Source of the DNA: Candidatus Nealsonbacteria bacterium
Lineage (GTDB): Bacteria > Patescibacteriota > Minisyncoccia > Minisyncoccales > JAGMDC01
DNA: 41,526 nt
Assembly: GCA_030612885.1 (NCBI GenBank)
Contig: JAUWMZ010000006.1
Span: 1-41,526, forward strand
Direction: 5' to 3'
In this document: piece by piece, positions 10,485 to 41,333 of the stretch
Numbering within the stretch: position 1 is the stretch's first letter
Layout of the letters: every line of letters starts with the position of its first letter
The notes under the pieces: generated by a model
What the model saw: the letters and a program-made list of their open reading frames with translations, nothing else
Database searches by the model: none
Told to the model about the DNA's origin: nothing
Translations under genes and position numbers: made by a program

Positions 10485-11051
10485 ATGATGCCAACTAAAA
10501 AAACAACCAAAAAAGAAAAGAAAAAAGAAGTTAAAAAAGTAAAAAAAGCGATCCCTAAAGCAGTTGAGAAGAAACCCAAACCTAAACTCAAACCCGAGTC
10601 CAAACCCAAACCCGAGTCCAAACCCAAACCCAAACCTGAACCAAAAGCCGAAACAAAAAAAGCTTCTTATATAGAAGCGATTGGAAGAAGAAAAACATCA
10701 GTGGCTCGAGTGCGGCTTTGGACAAAAGGGGAAAAAGAGTTTTTAGTTAATGATAAACCATTAGAGGATTATTTTCCCAACTTTGAGATTCAGAAAATTG
10801 CTGCTGATAGTTTAGATAAAATGAAAAGCCAGGACAGATTTAAAATCCAGGTTTTAGTGAAAGGAGGCGGTTTTCATTCTCAAGCTGAAGCAGTAAGGCA
10901 TGGGGTAGCCCGGGTTTTGCTTAAATTTAATCCTGATTTTAAAAAACGTTTAAAAAAATCGGGTTTTTTAACCCGAGATCCAAGAATGAGAGAAAGAAAA
11001 AAATTCGGTCTCAAGCGGGCCCGTCGAGCTCCACAGTGGAGGAAAAGATAA
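10485..11051 (+). CDS. rpsI: 30S ribosomal protein S9 with K/P-rich N-terminal extension
   Basis: GRRKTSVARVRLW...GGGFHSQAEAVRHGVARVLL...RDPRMRERKKFGLKRARRAPQWRKR. About 60 aa of KPKPE-type low complexity at the N-terminus. Confidence 0.92.
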   Translation: MMPTKKTTKKEKKKEVKKVKKAIPKAVEKKPKPKLKPESKPKPESKPKPKPEPKAETKKASYIEAIGRRKTSVARVRLWTKGEKEFLVNDKPLEDYFPNFEIQKIAADSLDKMKSQDRFKIQVLVKGGGFHSQAEAVRHGVARVLLKFNPDFKKRLKKSGFLTRDPRMRERKKFGLKRARRAPQWRKR

Positions 11052-11053
11052 TT

Positions 11054-11203
11054 CGCTCGGAAAGTAATTTTTAGGAAACGCTCGTTCGCCTCCAGCGAGC
11101 GAATTCGCTCAGCTCTCGGCAAAATTCGAGTACTCAATATATTGAGTACTCGACCAAGCAATTTTGCCTCGAGGTGCTCCATAAAAATTACTTTTCTCGC
11201 TTA
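11054..11203. repeat. Structured 150-nt repeat, family A, copy 1 (nested hairpins, MITE-like)
   Basis: About 91% identical by eye to 35117-35267. Outer arms gaaagtaattttta / taaaaattactttt, middle arms ctcggcaaaatt / aattttgcctcgag, terminal hairpin cgagtactcaatatattgagtactcg (11127-11152). Confidence 0.85.
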
Positions 11204-11214
11204 TATCTTAAAAT

Positions 11215-11447
11215 AAAAAAAAAGAGCTCAAGGACTGACTTACTCGTGTATGATAATTTCTTTTTGTTTGGGTATTACTCCCTACAAAAGAAGTACACTT
11301 TCAGAAAGTATGAGCTTTAATGGTATAAGGGGTATTGTTTCCCTTATACAAAGAACTGATGGTAGGATGCCCAAAAAATGCCATGGGGCGGGCTATTTGT
11401 GGAAAAGCTCCACTGAGTACAAAAGGTCCTACCACTCTCTTATACTC
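11215..11447 (-). ncRNA. Candidate structured ncRNA of unknown class (ends approximate)
   Basis: Minus strand has TTGACA-16nt-TATAAT, then about 230 nt of locally GC-richer DNA with several stems (gguagga/uccuacc, guauaaggg/cccuuauac, gugga/uccac), ending in a weak hairpin plus U9. The + strand ORF here (11250-11453) has no RBS and atypical composition. I saw no tmRNA, RNase P or SRP signature. Confidence 0.45.
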
Positions 11448-11588: not shown

Positions 11589-12263
11589 ATGTTAACAGAA
11601 CTTATAGATAAATTTTATTTGGAACAGCAAAAAAACAGAGAGCAGAACCATTTTTATATTACTGATGCGGGCAAATGTCCACGGGCAGTTTTTTTTAAAT
11701 TTAAAAACGCGCCCAGAGAAAAAATGGATGCGCGTATTCTAAGAATATTTGAGAGAGGGGAGTCAATGCATATGAATATTATTAATACCTTAATTAGATT
11801 AGGTATTGTGGTATCAGCGGAAATAAAAATTCCTGCTCAAGAAATCATTTCCGGCCGAGCCGATGTAATTCTTTCTTTAAATAACGAACTTTATGTCTTA
11901 GATATTAAAAGTATGAATAGTATGATTTTTAGAAATTTAACCGAACCAAAGCCAGAAAATTTACAACAGGTCCAACTTTACCTTCATTATTTTAAAATTA
12001 AAAAAGGGATATTGCTTTATATTGACAAAGACCAGCAGAACATAAAAGAATTTGTCTTTAATTACGACTCAAAGCTTGTCAAATCACTTTTAGATGGTTT
12101 TCAAAAACTTAAAACAAAAATTGATTCTGATACCATTCCCTCAAGATTATTAGATTGGCCTGAAAATTGGCAGTGTCGATACTGCCAATTTAAGGATATT
12201 TGTTCAGAGGCCGGAGAAGGAGGTATCCATTGGAACGATTTTAAAAATAAGTTAGAGGGATAA
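11589..12263 (+). CDS. PD-(D/E)XK nuclease, Cas4-like (4-Cys cluster), orphan
   Basis: N-terminal Cys (DAGKCPRAVFF), catalytic-type GRADVILS...LYVLDIKS (D..D-x-K), QVQLY, and C-terminal CRYCQFKDIC. No CRISPR array or other cas genes in the window. Confidence 0.65.
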   Translation: MLTELIDKFYLEQQKNREQNHFYITDAGKCPRAVFFKFKNAPREKMDARILRIFERGESMHMNIINTLIRLGIVVSAEIKIPAQEIISGRADVILSLNNELYVLDIKSMNSMIFRNLTEPKPENLQQVQLYLHYFKIKKGILLYIDKDQQNIKEFVFNYDSKLVKSLLDGFQKLKTKIDSDTIPSRLLDWPENWQCRYCQFKDICSEAGEGGIHWNDFKNKLEG

Positions 12264-13674
12264 ATTGTAAAATATTTTCTTCAGTAAGAATGTAAAGTTG
12301 TTTGAATTCATTATTCCAAGTGAATTTTTTTATTCCAAAACACAATTCATAATTATTTATTTTGTCACGGTCATCGATCTCAATGACTTTTATTTTACTT
12401 TCTAAATTAAATATCAGATAATGGGAATTAAACCAGATGACATTATTAATTTTTTCTGAGAAACGAATTAGAAATTGCTTGGTCATTGATTCTTTTTGCG
12501 GCTGTTCTGTTTGGCTTTCTAAAAATAAAATCCAGATTTCATGTTCGTTAAAATAAAGAATTTTTTTAGAATCAGGAGATATTTTAATTTCTTTTACTGG
12601 TTCAAAAATTTTTTCAAAATTTTTTGTTTTTGGATTAAATAAATACAACTTCTTATTTTCTAAAATAAAAATAGATTCCTGTTCAACTTTTAATTCATAT
12701 TTGGTTTCTTGCTTTAAAGGGAAAGGAGAATTGTTAATTTTTTCTTCAAAATCAAGAGATAAATTATTTTTAAAGATATAACCGGATTTATCAATATAAT
12801 AAATATTATTATCTAATATTCCGTAAGTCAATATTTCTTCCAAAACCTGTCGAGAACGGTTCTCGCCCGCCACAATTTTTGCCGGAGGCAAAATTTGGGC
12901 GGGCGAGGTGTGTTTTAACAAATCAACTTCAAATAAATCACTATCTTTAAAATAAAATATTATGTTTGGTTCTTGGGGATGAAAATCAAGTTTTTCAATA
13001 TCTGGTTCTAAAACCAAAGAATTAAAAGAAATCAATTTATTCGGACTTTCAGTTAGGTCTAAAATAAAGTGTTCTAATTGTTCTTTTAAACCAATCTTTA
13101 AGATTATCTTTCCTTTGTCAGGAGAAATTTTGAGCTCTAACAACTCTGGTTCTTTTTTAGAAATTTCTTTTTCACTGATTAAGTGGCTCTTAAGATTATT
13201 TTCTAAATCAAATATTTTTAAAGCCCATTCATCTTCTGTTATTTCTTTTAAAATTACTTTGCTTTCAGGCAAAATCCAAAAATCTTCTACTCCTTTATTT
13301 AAAATTTGGAGTTCTAAATTTTTAGGAATTAAAATTATATTTTTTGCTTCTACTACTTTTTTTTCTTTTACTTCTAAGTTTTTCTCCCAAATATTATAAT
13401 CCTCTTTTTGAACACGGATATTATATTTTTTTGGCAAAAGATTATTAATATAAACAGAACCAAAAAAGAAACTTGTTTTTTCTTTTAGTTTTCCGTCTAA
13501 AAATACATCAGTATTTTTGGGCGAAGCTTTTAAAAACAATCCACCGGTTTGGGTGATTTTTTTATTCTCAAAATCAAAACGATACCCTTGGGAATATAAA
13601 ATCAGAATAGGGGTAATCAAAAAAAACAAAGATATTAAAACAAAAATTAAAATTGTTCTGGTTTTTTTAGTCAT
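12241..13674 (-). CDS. Membrane-anchored PEGA-domain protein with probable beta-propeller region
   Basis: The only long minus-strand ORF (477 aa). N-terminal TM (ILIFVLISLFFLITPILILY), PEGA-like ASPKNTDVFLDGKLKEKT...YNIRVQKEDYNIWEKNLEV and TolB-like ISPDSKKILYF repeats. Its 3' end overlaps the Cas4-like gene by 23 nt. Confidence 0.55.
   Translation of the reverse strand: MTKKTRTILIFVLISLFFLITPILILYSQGYRFDFENKKITQTGGLFLKASPKNTDVFLDGKLKEKTSFFFGSVYINNLLPKKYNIRVQKEDYNIWEKNLEVKEKKVVEAKNIILIPKNLELQILNKGVEDFWILPESKVILKEITEDEWALKIFDLENNLKSHLISEKEISKKEPELLELKISPDKGKIILKIGLKEQLEHFILDLTESPNKLISFNSLVLEPDIEKLDFHPQEPNIIFYFKDSDLFEVDLLKHTSPAQILPPAKIVAGENRSRQVLEEILTYGILDNNIYYIDKSGYIFKNNLSLDFEEKINNSPFPLKQETKYELKVEQESIFILENKKLYLFNPKTKNFEKIFEPVKEIKISPDSKKILYFNEHEIWILFLESQTEQPQKESMTKQFLIRFSEKINNVIWFNSHYLIFNLESKIKVIEIDDRDKINNYELCFGIKKFTWNNEFKQLYILTEENILQFIPLTYF
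12851..12910. repeat. GC-rich double-hairpin element embedded in-frame in the PEGA-domain CDS
   Basis: cgagaacggttctcg (perfect palindrome, identical 15-mer at 31201-31215), followed by cccgcc-acaatttttgcc-gga-ggcaaaatttg-ggcggg. Encodes ...AQILPPAKIVAGENRSRQ... on the minus strand. Confidence 0.75.
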
Positions 13675-28546: not shown

Positions 28547-28617
28547 AGCGGGGTGGAGAAGTAGTATCTTGCCAGCCTCATAAGCTGGAGACCCAGGCGC
28601 AATTCCTGGCCCCGCAA
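28547..28617 (+). tRNA. tRNA (anticodon CAT), initiator-like acceptor stem, non-canonical D and T loops
   Basis: Hand fold: acceptor GCGGGG/CCCCGC as I recall it for E. coli tRNA-fMet, with an A1xA72 mismatch; D stem GAGA/TCTT; anticodon arm ccagc-CTCATAA-gctgg; T arm ccagg-CGCAATT-cctgg. No encoded CCA. 71 nt. Confidence 0.6.
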
Positions 28618-28624
28618 CAAATTT

Positions 28625-28697
28625 GGCGGTGTAGCTCAGTGGTTAGAGCAATGCCTTCATAAGGCAGAGGTCGCTGGTTCAAATCCAGCCATCGCTA
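28625..28697 (+). tRNA. tRNA (anticodon CAT): elongator Met or Ile2 (lysidine)
   Basis: GGCGGTG-TA-GCTCAGTGGTTAGAGC-A-atgcc-TTCATAA-ggcag-aggtc-GCTGG-TTCAAAT-CCAGC-catcgct-a. Canonical D and T loops. Confidence 0.85.
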
Positions 28698-28768
28698 TAA
28701 GTTTTTTCAGAAAGCTTTTAGTCATTGGGGACGTAGATCAATTGATTAGATTGTTTCCTACCAAAAAT

Positions 28769-28843
28769 GCAGCGGTAGCTTAGTTGGTTTAAAGCGCCGC
28801 CCTGTCACGGCGGAGATCGTGGGTTCAAATCCCATTCGCTGCG
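28769..28843 (+). tRNA. tRNA-Asp (anticodon GTC)
   Basis: GCAGCGG-TA-GCTTAGTTGGTTTAAAGC-G-ccgcc-CTGTCAC-ggcgg-agatc-GTGGG-TTCAAAT-CCCAT-tcgctgc-g. Discriminator G73. Confidence 0.88.
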
Positions 28844-29954: not shown

Positions 29955-34033
<4,079 letters not shown>

Positions 34034-38778: not shown

Positions 38779-38806
38779 AGGTCTCGTTGAGGCCTTCTTT
38801 TTTTAT
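38779..38806 (+). terminator. Rho-independent terminator
   Basis: aggtctc-gtt-gaggcct followed by tcttttttt. Confidence 0.65.
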
Positions 38807-38808
38807 TT

Positions 38809-38924
38809 CCGACAAAGTTCCGACTTCATCAGAACTTTGTCGGAAACAAACTTGCCCGCCCACTTCGCCGTAGCTTCAGCGAGGCGAGAAGGGATACACC
38901 GCCTTTTAAGGAGGGGTAGTTTAT
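38809..38924. repeat. Repeat family B, copy 2 (with internal insert)
   Basis: ccgacaaagttc-cgacttcatca-gaactttgtcgg (12-bp stem), gaaacaaacttgcccg, [insert cccacttcgccgtagcttcagcgaggcgag], aagggatacaccgcc-ttttaa-ggaggggtagtttat. Confidence 0.65.
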
Positions 38925-39010: not shown

Positions 39011-39751
39011 ATGAAAAATATTGCTAAATTTACCCGCCATAATTTTTCTTTAGAAAATTTAGGCGGGTTAATTGACCATACTAATATCAAATTTGGTGCT
39101 ACTGCCAGAGAGATAAAAAAAACCTGTGACGAAGCGAAAAAATATAGCTTTCGGAGTGTTTGTATAAATCCAGAATGGGTGAAATTAGTTAAAAAAGAAT
39201 TAAGCGGAACAGAAATAAAAAAGGTGGTTTTAATTGATCCGCCAATGGGTTTAAGCTCTCATCAAGCAAGAGTAAAGATGTGCCAAAAAGCAAAGAAAGA
39301 CGGCGCAGATGAATTAGATATAGTGATGAATATCGTTGACTTGAAGTATGAGAAATATGCTCAAGTTTTAAAGGATTTAAAAGAAATTTGTAAGATTTTG
39401 CCAACAAAGGTAATTATTGGTTCCGGCTATCTGACTGATGAAGAAATAAAAATTGCTTCTCAATTAGTTAAAAAAGCTGGAGCAATTTGTGTCAAGACAG
39501 CTACTTTTAAAGATCCTTTAGAAAACAGAGAATTAGAAGAAAAAGCCAGGCATTTAAAAATTATGCGAAAGGCGGCTCCTGGTCTTTTAATCAAAGCAGC
39601 CGGAAAGATTAAGACCCTGAAAGACCTTAAAATGATGGTTAGGGCAGGAGCAGATATAATTGGGACAAGCAGCGGAGTATCAATTATAAGAACCTGCTCG
39701 CTTCGCTCGCAGAACCTTGAAATTAAAATTATAAAAGAACTTAAAAAATAG
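39011..39751 (+). CDS. deoC: Deoxyribose-phosphate aldolase-like (DeoC family)
   Basis: [59 protein letters not shown] (Schiff-base Lys context), [19 protein letters not shown]. Confidence 0.72.
39687..39720. repeat. agaacc-flanked element in-frame near the 3' end of the deoC-like CDS
   Basis: ataagaacctgctcgcttcgctcgcagaaccttga shares ataagaacctgc...gcagaaccttga with the 23591 tandem element. Encodes ..[11 protein letters not shown].. Confidence 0.65.
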
Positions 39752-39755
39752 TTGT

Positions 39756-41333
39756 ATGAGTTATTTTCCAACTGTCGGTTTGGAAATCCATGCCGAATTA
39801 AAAACTAAGAGTAAGATGTTTTGTAGTTGCGTCAATGACCCGGATGAAAAACAAGCCAATATTAATATTTGTCCAATTTGCACAGCTCATCCGGGCGTAT
39901 TGCCGGTTATAAATAGAGAGGCAGTAAGAAAAACAATAAAAACCGGCTTAGCTTTGAATTGTCAAATTCCTCAATATTCTAAATTTGATAGAAAAAACTA
40001 TTTTTATCCGGATTTGCCAAAAGGATATCAAATTTCTCAACTTTATATGCCGTTTTGTGAAAATGGATTTTTAGAAATCAATAATAGGAATATCAGAATA
40101 AGAGAAATTCATTTAGAAGAAGATACGGGAAGGCTAGTTCATCCAGAAGGGGTTGATTATAGTTTAGTGGATTTTAATCGAGCAGGTGTTCCTTTAATGG
40201 AGTTGGTTACAGAACCAGACATTCATTCAGCAAAAGAAGCGAGAAAATTTGCTGAAGAATTCCAATTAATTTTAAGATATCTTGATGTTTCTTATGCCAA
40301 TATGGAAAAGGGACAATTACGTATTGAAGTGAATATTTCACTTCAATGCAAATCCAAAATCCAAATGACAAAATCCAAATCAAATCCAAAACCCAAAACC
40401 CAAAACCCAAAACTTGGCACAAAGGTTGAGATTAAGAATTTAAATTCATTCAAGGCAGTGGAGAAGGGGATTGAGTATGAAATTGAGAGGCAATCAGAAA
40501 TTTTAGAAAAAGGAGAAAAAGTCATTCAAGAAACGCGTGGCTGGCATGATGCAAAACAAATAACAATAAGCCAGAGAGAAAAAGAAGAAGCCCACGATTA
40601 TAGGTATTTTCCAGAACCAGACTTGACGATGATAAAAATAGATATTAATAAGAACATTTCACTTCGTTCAAGAACCTTGATTTCCTCGCTTTACTCGGAA
40701 AATAAAATTAAATCAGAGATTTCTGAACTGCCTCAAGCTAAAAGAGAGAGATTTAAAGCAGAATATGATTTGTCATACAATGAGATAGAAGTTTTTGTTC
40801 AGAATAAAAACTTTGGAGAATATTTTGAAAAAGTAATGTCAGAGCTAAGAAACTGGATAAAAGAAACAGATATAAAAAGAAAAGTTGAAAGAGAGGAATT
40901 TTTAAAACTAGCAAAAATTTGCGCTAATTATACTATTACTGATTTACAGGGATTATTAAAAGGTATGGATATTAAGAGTAAAGATTTTTCAATTACTGCA
41001 GAAAATTTTGCTGAATTTATTACCTTGCTTTATAAAAAAGAAATTTCATCAAAGATCGCCAAAATAGTTTTGAGCGAAATGTTTAAAACCGGCGCTGATC
41101 CATCACACATTATTAAAAATAAAGGACTAAGCCAAGTAACCGATGAATTAGAAATTGAGAAAGTTATAAAGGACATAATTTCAAAAAATCCTCAACCAGT
41201 TGAAGATTATAAAAAAGGAAAAGAAAACGCTTTACAGTTTTTGATAGGCCAGGTAATGGCAGCTACCAGAGGCAAAGCCAAACCAGAGACAGTGAACAAG
41301 ATTTTAAGGAAAAACTTGACCCCGCACCTTTAG
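39756..41333 (+). CDS. gatB: Glu/Asp-tRNA amidotransferase subunit B (with two in-frame low-complexity/repeat insertions)
   Basis: [82 protein letters not shown]-terminal GatB/YqeY domain LQFLIGQVM. Confidence 0.92.
40648..40698. repeat. agaacc-family element in-frame in gatB
   Basis: aataagaacatttcacttcgttcaagaaccttgatttcctcgctttactcgg shares aataagaac, cttcgtt and agaaccttgatt(t)cct(t)cg with the 23591 element. Encodes [18 protein letters not shown]. Confidence 0.65.

Follow-up and report, generated by a model that had tools for sequence, protein, structure and literature searches.

How does a short, GC-rich block made of two hairpins come to lie, in frame, inside a protein-coding gene of an ultra-small bacterium? 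Such a block occupies positions 12851-12907 of a 41,526-nt stretch of Candidatus Nealsonbacteria bacterium DNA (contig JAUWMZ010000006.1 of assembly GCA_030612885.1; hereafter the window), within an open reading frame (ORF) for a beta-propeller protein that we call the host protein. We propose, with a probability of roughly 0.75, that two hairpins of the repetitive extragenic palindromic (REP) type form the block, as a nested composite. Module 1 would be cognate to a Y1 transposase gene that resembles the REP-associated tyrosine transposases (RAYTs), and module 2 would be a later, lineage-specific arrival. The window corresponds to contig C10 in a genome of 693 kb (34% G+C, 10 contigs, rated 98.6% complete, about 90% coding by crude longest-ORF tiling), and positions on other contigs carry the contig name. 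This genome is denoted G000, its congeners G001, G002 and G003, and two further members of the same family G004 and G007.

Two nested hairpins in one gene

The features at the locus are as follows.

12241-13674, (-) strand: host gene, 477 aa, with an N-terminal transmembrane helix, a PEGA-like beta-sandwich and a beta-propeller.
12851-12865: module 1 core, CGAGAA-CGG-TTCTCG, read on the coding (-) strand as E-N-R-S-R.
12866-12907: module 2 hairpin insertion, 42 nt, 14 in-frame codons TSPAQILPPAKIVA, placed by DNA and protein alignments.
12862-12907: long hairpin with a 10-bp GC clamp, CTCGCCCGCC/GGCGGGCGAG.
Host protein peptide segment at the block: HTSPAQILPPAKIVAGENR.

The block stands out from its surroundings, with a GC content of 60% against 24% in the remainder of the host gene, and the reading frame runs uninterrupted across it (translation ...HTSPAQILPPAKIVAGENRSRQVLEE...), both as the initial annotation of this DNA had reported. 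The 15-mer CGAGAACGGTTCTCG at 12851-12865 does recur identically at 31201-31215 within pheT, and it found no match in 100 dinucleotide-preserving shuffles. Having been described as a perfect palindrome, it proves to have 7-bp arms around an unpaired centre base (7+1+7), and its reverse complement differs by that one base. The second stem-loop, estimated at about 38 nt, is real but longer: its stem CTCGCCCGCC...GGCGGGCGAG includes CTCG, the last four bases of the 15-mer's right arm, and the two hairpins therefore compete and are partly mutually exclusive. The minimum-energy fold retains the long hairpin, both as DNA (-25.1 kcal/mol, z -5.7) and as RNA (-38.9 kcal/mol, z -5.8). An Rfam scan of the whole window gave three tRNA matches only and none at the block, and a terminator and promoter scan of the host gene called no terminator-like site at 12851-12910 on either strand. 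The block does not combine a GC hairpin with a T-run as an intrinsic terminator does; several intergenic members of the family do have T-runs.

Alignment with relatives separates the two modules. In the DNA alignment each of the four species in the genus has CGAGAA(C/T)-N-GTTCTC at identical codon positions, and 42 extra bases, directly 5' of the core on the coding strand, occur only in G000. The three congeners lack exactly 12866-12907 while keeping the 15-nt core, and in the protein alignment they lack exactly TSPAQILPPAKIVA, yet retain (A/I)EN(G/S/C)S(Q/R). The boundary of the insertion is ambiguous by 1-4 nt because of a CGAG/C repeat at the junction. Distant orthologues carry unrelated residues, equal in length, at the position of the core, which is therefore length-neutral in the host protein. 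The earlier idea of a single 60-nt insertion of about 20 codons survives to the extent that congeners lack a portion of the block; there are, however, two elements, and only 42 nt (14 codons) were inserted. The 15-mer itself occupies the same codons in 4/4 species of the genus and adds no length relative to distant orthologues. The block is two unrelated repeat families of different ages, one nested at the foot of the other; judging from the alignments, the module 1 unit in the host gene would date to the common ancestor of the genus, and module 2 would be younger.

The initial annotation had asked whether the insertion maps to a surface loop, and the structural prediction places it in a loop. 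Orthologues of the host protein were found in 37 of 41 relatives, and an AlphaFold model built on the ortholog alignment had a mean predicted local distance difference test score (pLDDT) of 87.5 and a predicted template modelling score of 0.79. The insert corresponds to residues 256-269, and the sole segment with pLDDT below 50 is residues 256-271, which falls between beta-strands 246-251 and 274-278; the insert is thus predicted to occupy a loop of the propeller. At the N-terminus the Pfam PEGA match reaches 18.7 bits, under the 20.8 cut-off, and by Foldseek the C-terminal two-thirds resembles 8-bladed, WD40 and BamB-type propellers.

Module 1 is a dispersed palindrome family

The initial annotation had suggested searching the whole genome for the 15-mer, and the palindrome is strongly over-represented. 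CGAGAA-N3-TTCTCG occurs in 21 exact copies in the 693-kb genome and in 26 copies with at most one mismatch, and a reversed-pattern control gave 0-1 in every genome. The core is the centre of a larger unit, AAATYAA-CGAGAA-NNN-TTCTCG-TTRATTT, a palindrome of 23-29 nt with conserved flanks (consensus AAATYAA). Units gain a mean of 4.7 additional paired bases beyond the core, compared with 0.39 at random sites. Outside palindromes the half-site CGAGAAC shows no over-representation: counting both strands it occurs 68 times, ranking about 60th of 210 among 7-mers of the same composition. Loops are of two types, A (C-S-G) and B (ATG/CAT).

Module 1 unit sequence, set beside the type-A unit: AAATTTAACGAGAAATGTTCTCGTTAAATT.

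The family is shared with close relatives and thins out beyond them. The same pattern has 22 copies in G001, 22 in G002, 19 in G007 and 12 in G004; elsewhere in the order there are 0-7 copies per genome (0-1 in most other families), with genome-specific loop variants. Tandem pairs are present in G001, and most units are singlets. The genomic distribution of the units is far from even, with 11 of 26 in intergenic DNA where non-coding DNA makes up 10% (p = 1.9e-5, about 4-fold enrichment). Many of the intergenic units lie 6-28 nt past a stop codon, several with flanking A/T runs.

About 12-15 of the 26 units lie within ORFs, in frame, bearing out the central proposal of the initial annotation that a palindromic element family is tolerated, and translated, inside coding sequence. 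They are distributed as follows.

In-frame units: pheT (two), leuS (two), thrS, pth, an MltG-like gene and a PHP-domain gene.
Further in-frame units: a ComM/YifB-like gene, a gene for a large membrane protein, the host gene and a transposase gene.

The units use every one of the three frames, yielding STRTVLV/LTRNVLV, RERFSL and ENGSR as peptides, and in the third frame TGT, TGG or CAG stands in place of the TGA or TAA that the flank would supply. At C5:100150 a unit overlaps the end of a MurJ-like gene, and the TAA of its TTAA flank is the stop codon (...NENTSR, then stop). In a genome that is 90% coding, we propose that the intragenic survivors are those copies that kept the frame and fell in tolerant protein segments. 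Orthologues from genomes lacking the repeat family do not carry the same residues at the host site, and neither of the two outcomes that the initial annotation had named as refuting its idea was observed.

Presence and absence of units in pheT and leuS

Two units in pheT and a doublet in leuS allow module 1 to be followed among congeners. The pheT units are these.

31196-31220: module 1 unit, a perfect 25-nt palindrome CTCAACGAGAAC-G-GTTCTCGTTGAG, read N-S-T-R-T-V-L-V-E.
30929-30943: degenerate core with two mismatches, AGAGAACAGTTCTCG, read R-E-N-S-S-R-W.

The copy of the 15-mer at 31201-31215 is the centre of the 25-nt palindrome, and the unit adds 2-3 codons relative to orthologues without it. 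At 30929-30943, TGG stands where the flank would give TGA in frame, and length is unchanged relative to distant orthologues. Both units are present in G000, G001 and G002, with unrelated AT-rich sequence in their place in G003. The leuS units form an inverted doublet at C6:7946 and 7974 with opposite loop bases, together a 43-nt palindrome imperfect only at its last base. The doublet occurs in G000 and G001 only, with a net gain of 13 aa; G002, G003 and six genomes further removed lack it and retain an ancestral-looking GGDI(F/S)-KEAF. In the pheT tree G003 is sister to G000 (support 87/90), yet G003 lacks pheT and leuS units that G001 carries. These comparisons show turnover of module 1 units, and the pattern in the four genomes fits loss, parallel gain or recombination alike.

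Among three species, pheT cores are 87% identical compared with 77% for the remainder of the gene, and at synonymous sites 6 of 8 codons are identical in the units as against 57 of 100 elsewhere (p = 0.27). Given that p value, we do not claim selection on the hairpin.

A different hairpin is also found in pheT. At 30186-30211 a GC-clamped hairpin, CCCGCCTTCGTTAAAACTACGGCGGG, is in frame as PAFVKTTAG and shared only with G003; in other pheT orthologues its place is taken by an unrelated segment of greater length. At no fewer than three more places the genome has similar hairpins, which encode ...A(K/T)A/TAGK peptides.

Module 1 flanks a RAYT-like Y1 transposase gene

The locus that ties module 1 to a candidate enzyme is C5:11034-11768, which encodes a 244-aa protein matching Pfam Y1_Tnp (PF01797; E = 1.7e-12, 48 bits against a cut-off of 23). 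Its PNHIHLL and GGRYK motifs align with MPDHVHLL and NPSYC of ISDra2 TnpA, the HUH motif and tyrosine respectively. A PDB sequence search gave weak matches only (E ~0.1) and was used solely to place these motifs. By its sequence the protein would belong to a divergent RAYT clade. Type-B units lie upstream of the gene at 11005, inside it and in frame at 11227, and at its stop codon at 11769, which is the layout of a REPtron.

The association is not confined to one genome. Orthologous Y1 loci in G001, G002 and G007 have 2-4 exact units each per ~3.3 kb, where ~0.1 would be expected from genome-wide density, and G003 has a compensated variant, CAGAGAAC-N-GTTCTCTG, on either side of the gene. The layout of units before, inside and after the Y1 gene thus recurs in five genomes, G000 and four relatives. 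G000 has five Y1 genes, at least three of which have a hairpin family of their own in and beside the gene. At C4:129733-130476 the hairpin GGGCGAAG..CTTCGCCC is found before, inside and after the paralogue, and at C2:97977-98756 the hairpin GGGACAGGGGAGGGAC-A-GTCCCTCCCCTGTCCC is found upstream and inside near the 3' end. One hairpin family per Y1 paralogue looks like the rule in this genome.

Module 2 is a second hairpin family, found twice beside module 1

Module 2 has the form CCCGCC-YAARTTTT-loop-AAAAYTTR-GGCGGG. G000 contains three copies (12866-12903, 39033-39067 and C2:121038-121072), and other genomes of the order contribute about a dozen clear copies, whose stems differ in a compensated way and whose loops vary. 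The second copy in the window is as follows.

39033-39067: module 2 copy CCCGCCATAATTTTTCTTTAGAAAATTTAGGCGGG, in frame, close to the N-terminus encoded by a DeoC-like ORF (39011-39751); the copy is shared with G003.

The C2 copy lies in the ComM-like gene, directly adjoining a module 1 core, and is likewise common to G003. It adds 11-13 residues relative to other orthologues, and without it the ComM protein reads I-Q-R-E-R-F, fitting the conserved Q-x-x-R-F. Two of the three copies in G000 therefore adjoin a module 1 core at one and the same junction, ...GCGGG|CGAGAAC, and the two insertions differ in age, the ComM copy being present also in G003 and the host-gene copy not. By our own arithmetic, which takes about 52 core edges for the 693 kb, two such landings would arise from random insertion with a probability of ~1e-8. 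Set beside miniature inverted-repeat transposable elements (MITEs), which have terminal inverted repeats and a constant target-site duplication, module 2 gives a mixed picture, as the sequences on either side differ between copies: the ComM copy has direct CGAG...CGAG, the host-gene copy inverted CTCG...CGAG, and copies in other genomes have no common flank. One match to the module 2 pattern lies ~0.5 kb upstream of a Y1 paralogue in another genome (G024).

Two further observations concern the neighbourhoods of these copies. About 160 nt upstream of the DeoC-like ORF, a hairpin TTTATTTCCGACAAAGTTCCGA / TCAGAACTTTGTCGGAAACAAA at 38802-38850 has 22-nt arms that are 91% complementary and a 5-nt loop. 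For the C-terminal 224 aa of the ComM/YifB-like gene product (C2:120792-122012), identity is 95% with G003, 68-79% with other families and ~50% with G001 and G002, a pattern suggesting that, within the genus, the gene was replaced or swapped for a paralogue.

Other features of the window

The window contains further repeats. A GC-rich imperfect palindrome, GCCTCCGCTTCTGCTAAAGCTTTAGCGAAGGCGGATGC, lies at 33731-33768 in gyrB, in frame as an Ala/Ser/Lys-rich stretch, and a perfect 28-nt palindrome without spacer, TCGAGTACTCAATATATTGAGTACTCGA, lies at 11126-11153 and is unrelated to modules 1 and 2. A repeat family with conserved ends CCCCGCACCTTTT...AAAAGGTGCGGGG and a variable interior of 5-40 nt is represented in the window at 41321 and elsewhere, for example, at C1:51415-51477 and C5:145555-145617; genome-wide it comprises 28 arms (~14 elements), mostly intergenic, and may represent either a structured RNA or a further family of REP type. 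Three consecutive tRNA genes at 28547-28843 (Rfam RF00005) stand just upstream of pheS.

Discussion

REP and REPIN elements together with RAYT (TnpA-REP) tyrosine transposases have been described as "REPtrons" (Nunvar 2010, PMC2817692; Bertels & Rainey 2011, PMC3116915; Di Nocera 2013, PMC3733652). The initial annotation had drawn an analogy with Rickettsia palindromic elements (RPEs). That analogy is apt, and the short intragenic RPE-4 and RPE-6 have been equated with CGTC-tagged REPs (Di Nocera 2013, PMC3733652), but REP/RAYT is the closest known system, rather than RPE, because module 1 is linked to a RAYT-like Y1 transposase gene. Like REP/REPIN, module 1 is a short, GC-stemmed palindrome in many dispersed copies, enriched past gene 3' ends, and present as singlets and, in leuS, as an inverted doublet. 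As with REP/RAYT, units flank a Y1/HUH transposase-like gene, and several paralogues have each their own hairpin. Even the in-frame units have a precedent, since intragenic REPs, including those in tRNA synthetase genes, have already been reported (Di Nocera 2013, PMC3733652).

There are also differences. About half of the units here are intragenic, several coding units replace codons rather than adding them, one unit is in frame within the transposase gene itself, and a second hairpin is nested at the foot of the first. The host is a 0.69-Mb genome of the candidate phyla radiation (CPR) type, and in the literature searched we found no paper linking REP/RAYT to Patescibacteria or Parcubacteria.

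With RPEs the units share their palindromic nature, a small AT-rich genome, and in-frame translation as extra loop residues of conserved proteins. Compared by length, classical RPE-1 elements (~100-150 bp) exceed the units of the present genome, which measure 15-29 nt and 35-42 nt. We know of no dedicated transposase for RPEs, whereas module 1 is physically linked to a Y1 gene. A third point of reference is the IS200/IS605 group (IS608, ISDra2 TnpA; PDB 2XMA), whose members insert at a hairpin foot or behind a particular tetranucleotide, and with which the C5 protein shares the enzyme fold and the aligned HUH motif and tyrosine. The position of module 2 exactly at the foot of module 1, by CGAG and in two independent events, recalls the hairpin-foot insertion of that group, and cleavage and ligation at a hairpin foot would, by analogy, yield the position observed. 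In contrast to IS200/IS605, there is no full insertion sequence and no TnpB here, module 2 has no subterminal asymmetric hairpins, and elsewhere in the order it is not consistently beside CGAG.

We therefore favor, at the strength given at the outset, the nested composite. Module 1 would be the repeat of the RAYT-like Y1/HUH transposase gene at C5:11034-11768, its units piling up just past stop codons and also settling inside genes. Module 2 would be a subsequent arrival confined to this lineage, placed precisely where the module 1 core has its foot (...GCGGG|CGAGAAC), and its entry would have lengthened a disordered loop between two propeller beta-strands by 14 residues. The Y1 enzyme may cut and join single-stranded DNA at the hairpin foot, and such a cut may have served as the entry point for module 2.

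Several points weigh against this reading. The host-gene module 2 is only 30/38 (~79%) identical to the ComM or the DeoC-side copy, no donor for the 42-nt insert was found among the other module 2 copies, target-site duplication is inconsistent across 12 module 2 copies, and module 2 flanks none of the five Y1 genes in G000. The transposase has NF047646 REP_Tyr_transpos as its best NCBIfam family, but at 45.9 bits it is below the cut-off of 80, and that the Y1 enzyme is active in this clade is something we infer. The GTAG or CGTC tetranucleotide tag is a hallmark of the described REP superfamilies (PMC3733652), and no such tag is present in the units listed, where the flank AAATYAA adjoins CGAGAA; ~26 copies is also a low number for a REP family. 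Finally, the core replaces codons with no change of length in the host gene, at one pheT site (site A) and in ComM (with module 2 removed), and presumably also in thrS. Such length-neutral cores are not explained by simple cut-and-paste insertion.

Could the palindromes instead be functional sites under selection (bidirectional terminators, mRNA-stabilising hairpins or operators for a dimeric protein), their link to Y1 genes being incidental or autoregulatory? The many intergenic units 6-28 nt past stops with A/T runs on both sides, the several coding units without length change, and the core kept at the same codons in four species would all fit such a role. Terminators, however, would be expected neither from coding units without a T-run nor from a locus at which no terminator-like site is called, and gene 3' ends and gene interiors are not operator positions. 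Presence and absence with length changes among congeners, a hairpin family for each Y1 paralogue, and the failure of the synonymous-site test in pheT to detect extra constraint (p = 0.27) speak in the same direction, and we consider selected function unlikely. A LexA-box or parS-like operator was rejected for its spacing and for the location of the units at gene 3' ends and inside genes. A further alternative is an origin without any transposase, in which short-patch gene conversion spreads seeds that are then extended by fold-back (template switching) in the course of replication or repair, with the Y1 genes merely frequent targets. This would account for codons overwritten without change of length and for the compensated differences at paired positions between module 2 copies; moreover, the insert in the host gene starts with CTCG, the complement of the following CGAG, as though synthesis of the stem had run on over the junction. 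The layout before, inside and after Y1 genes in five genomes is not what it would predict, and the AAATYAA flank is conserved rather than locus-specific DNA. Since the flank is conserved, the unit was copied whole and not grown from local sequence; fold-back growth of module 1 from local sequence is accordingly rejected, its flanks being part of the conserved unit. We regard the transposase-free origin as a whole as quite improbable.

Other explanations carry far less weight. Haemophilus uptake signal sequences and Neisseria DNA uptake sequences likewise occur within reading frames and, past gene ends, as inverted pairs. A motif of this kind, spread by biased uptake and recombination, would explain why length-neutral genic copies and terminator-like palindromes past genes are common to related species. 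The half-site CGAGAAC is not over-represented outside the palindromes, however; the tight association with Y1 transposase genes and the genome-specific loop variants also argue against an uptake signal, making it very improbable indeed. Chance resemblance or an assembly artefact is scarcely credible given 0 matches in 100 shuffles, the presence of one core at one site in four genomes that were assembled independently, and an intact reading frame.

A bolder reading goes further. The foot of the core could be where a divergent RAYT clade, specific to CPR bacteria, still processes DNA, with a single-stranded nick made at |CGAGAA, module 2 ligated in, and 15-nt cores overwriting codons length-neutrally. 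We consider this doubtful. Were it true, short-patch overwriting would replace classical insertion as the mode of spread, and, in a genome that is 90% coding, protein loops would be the main habitat of the repeat, with steady variation of loops in essential enzymes.

The locus, filled here and empty in three congeners, provides a clean, dated case of a hairpin that moved recently in a bacterium both ultra-small and uncultivated, and the repeated landing of module 2 at the foot of the core suggests the position at which the enzyme cuts. In gene-dense genomes of this kind, REP-type repeats may reside largely in essential genes (pheT, leuS, thrS and pth), as translated loop residues. For annotation, this means that a repeat can be the source of GC-rich "low-complexity" peptides in proteins of CPR bacteria. 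These observations bear on alignment-based phylogeny of these lineages, and on the persistence of RAYT-like enzymes and their hairpins.

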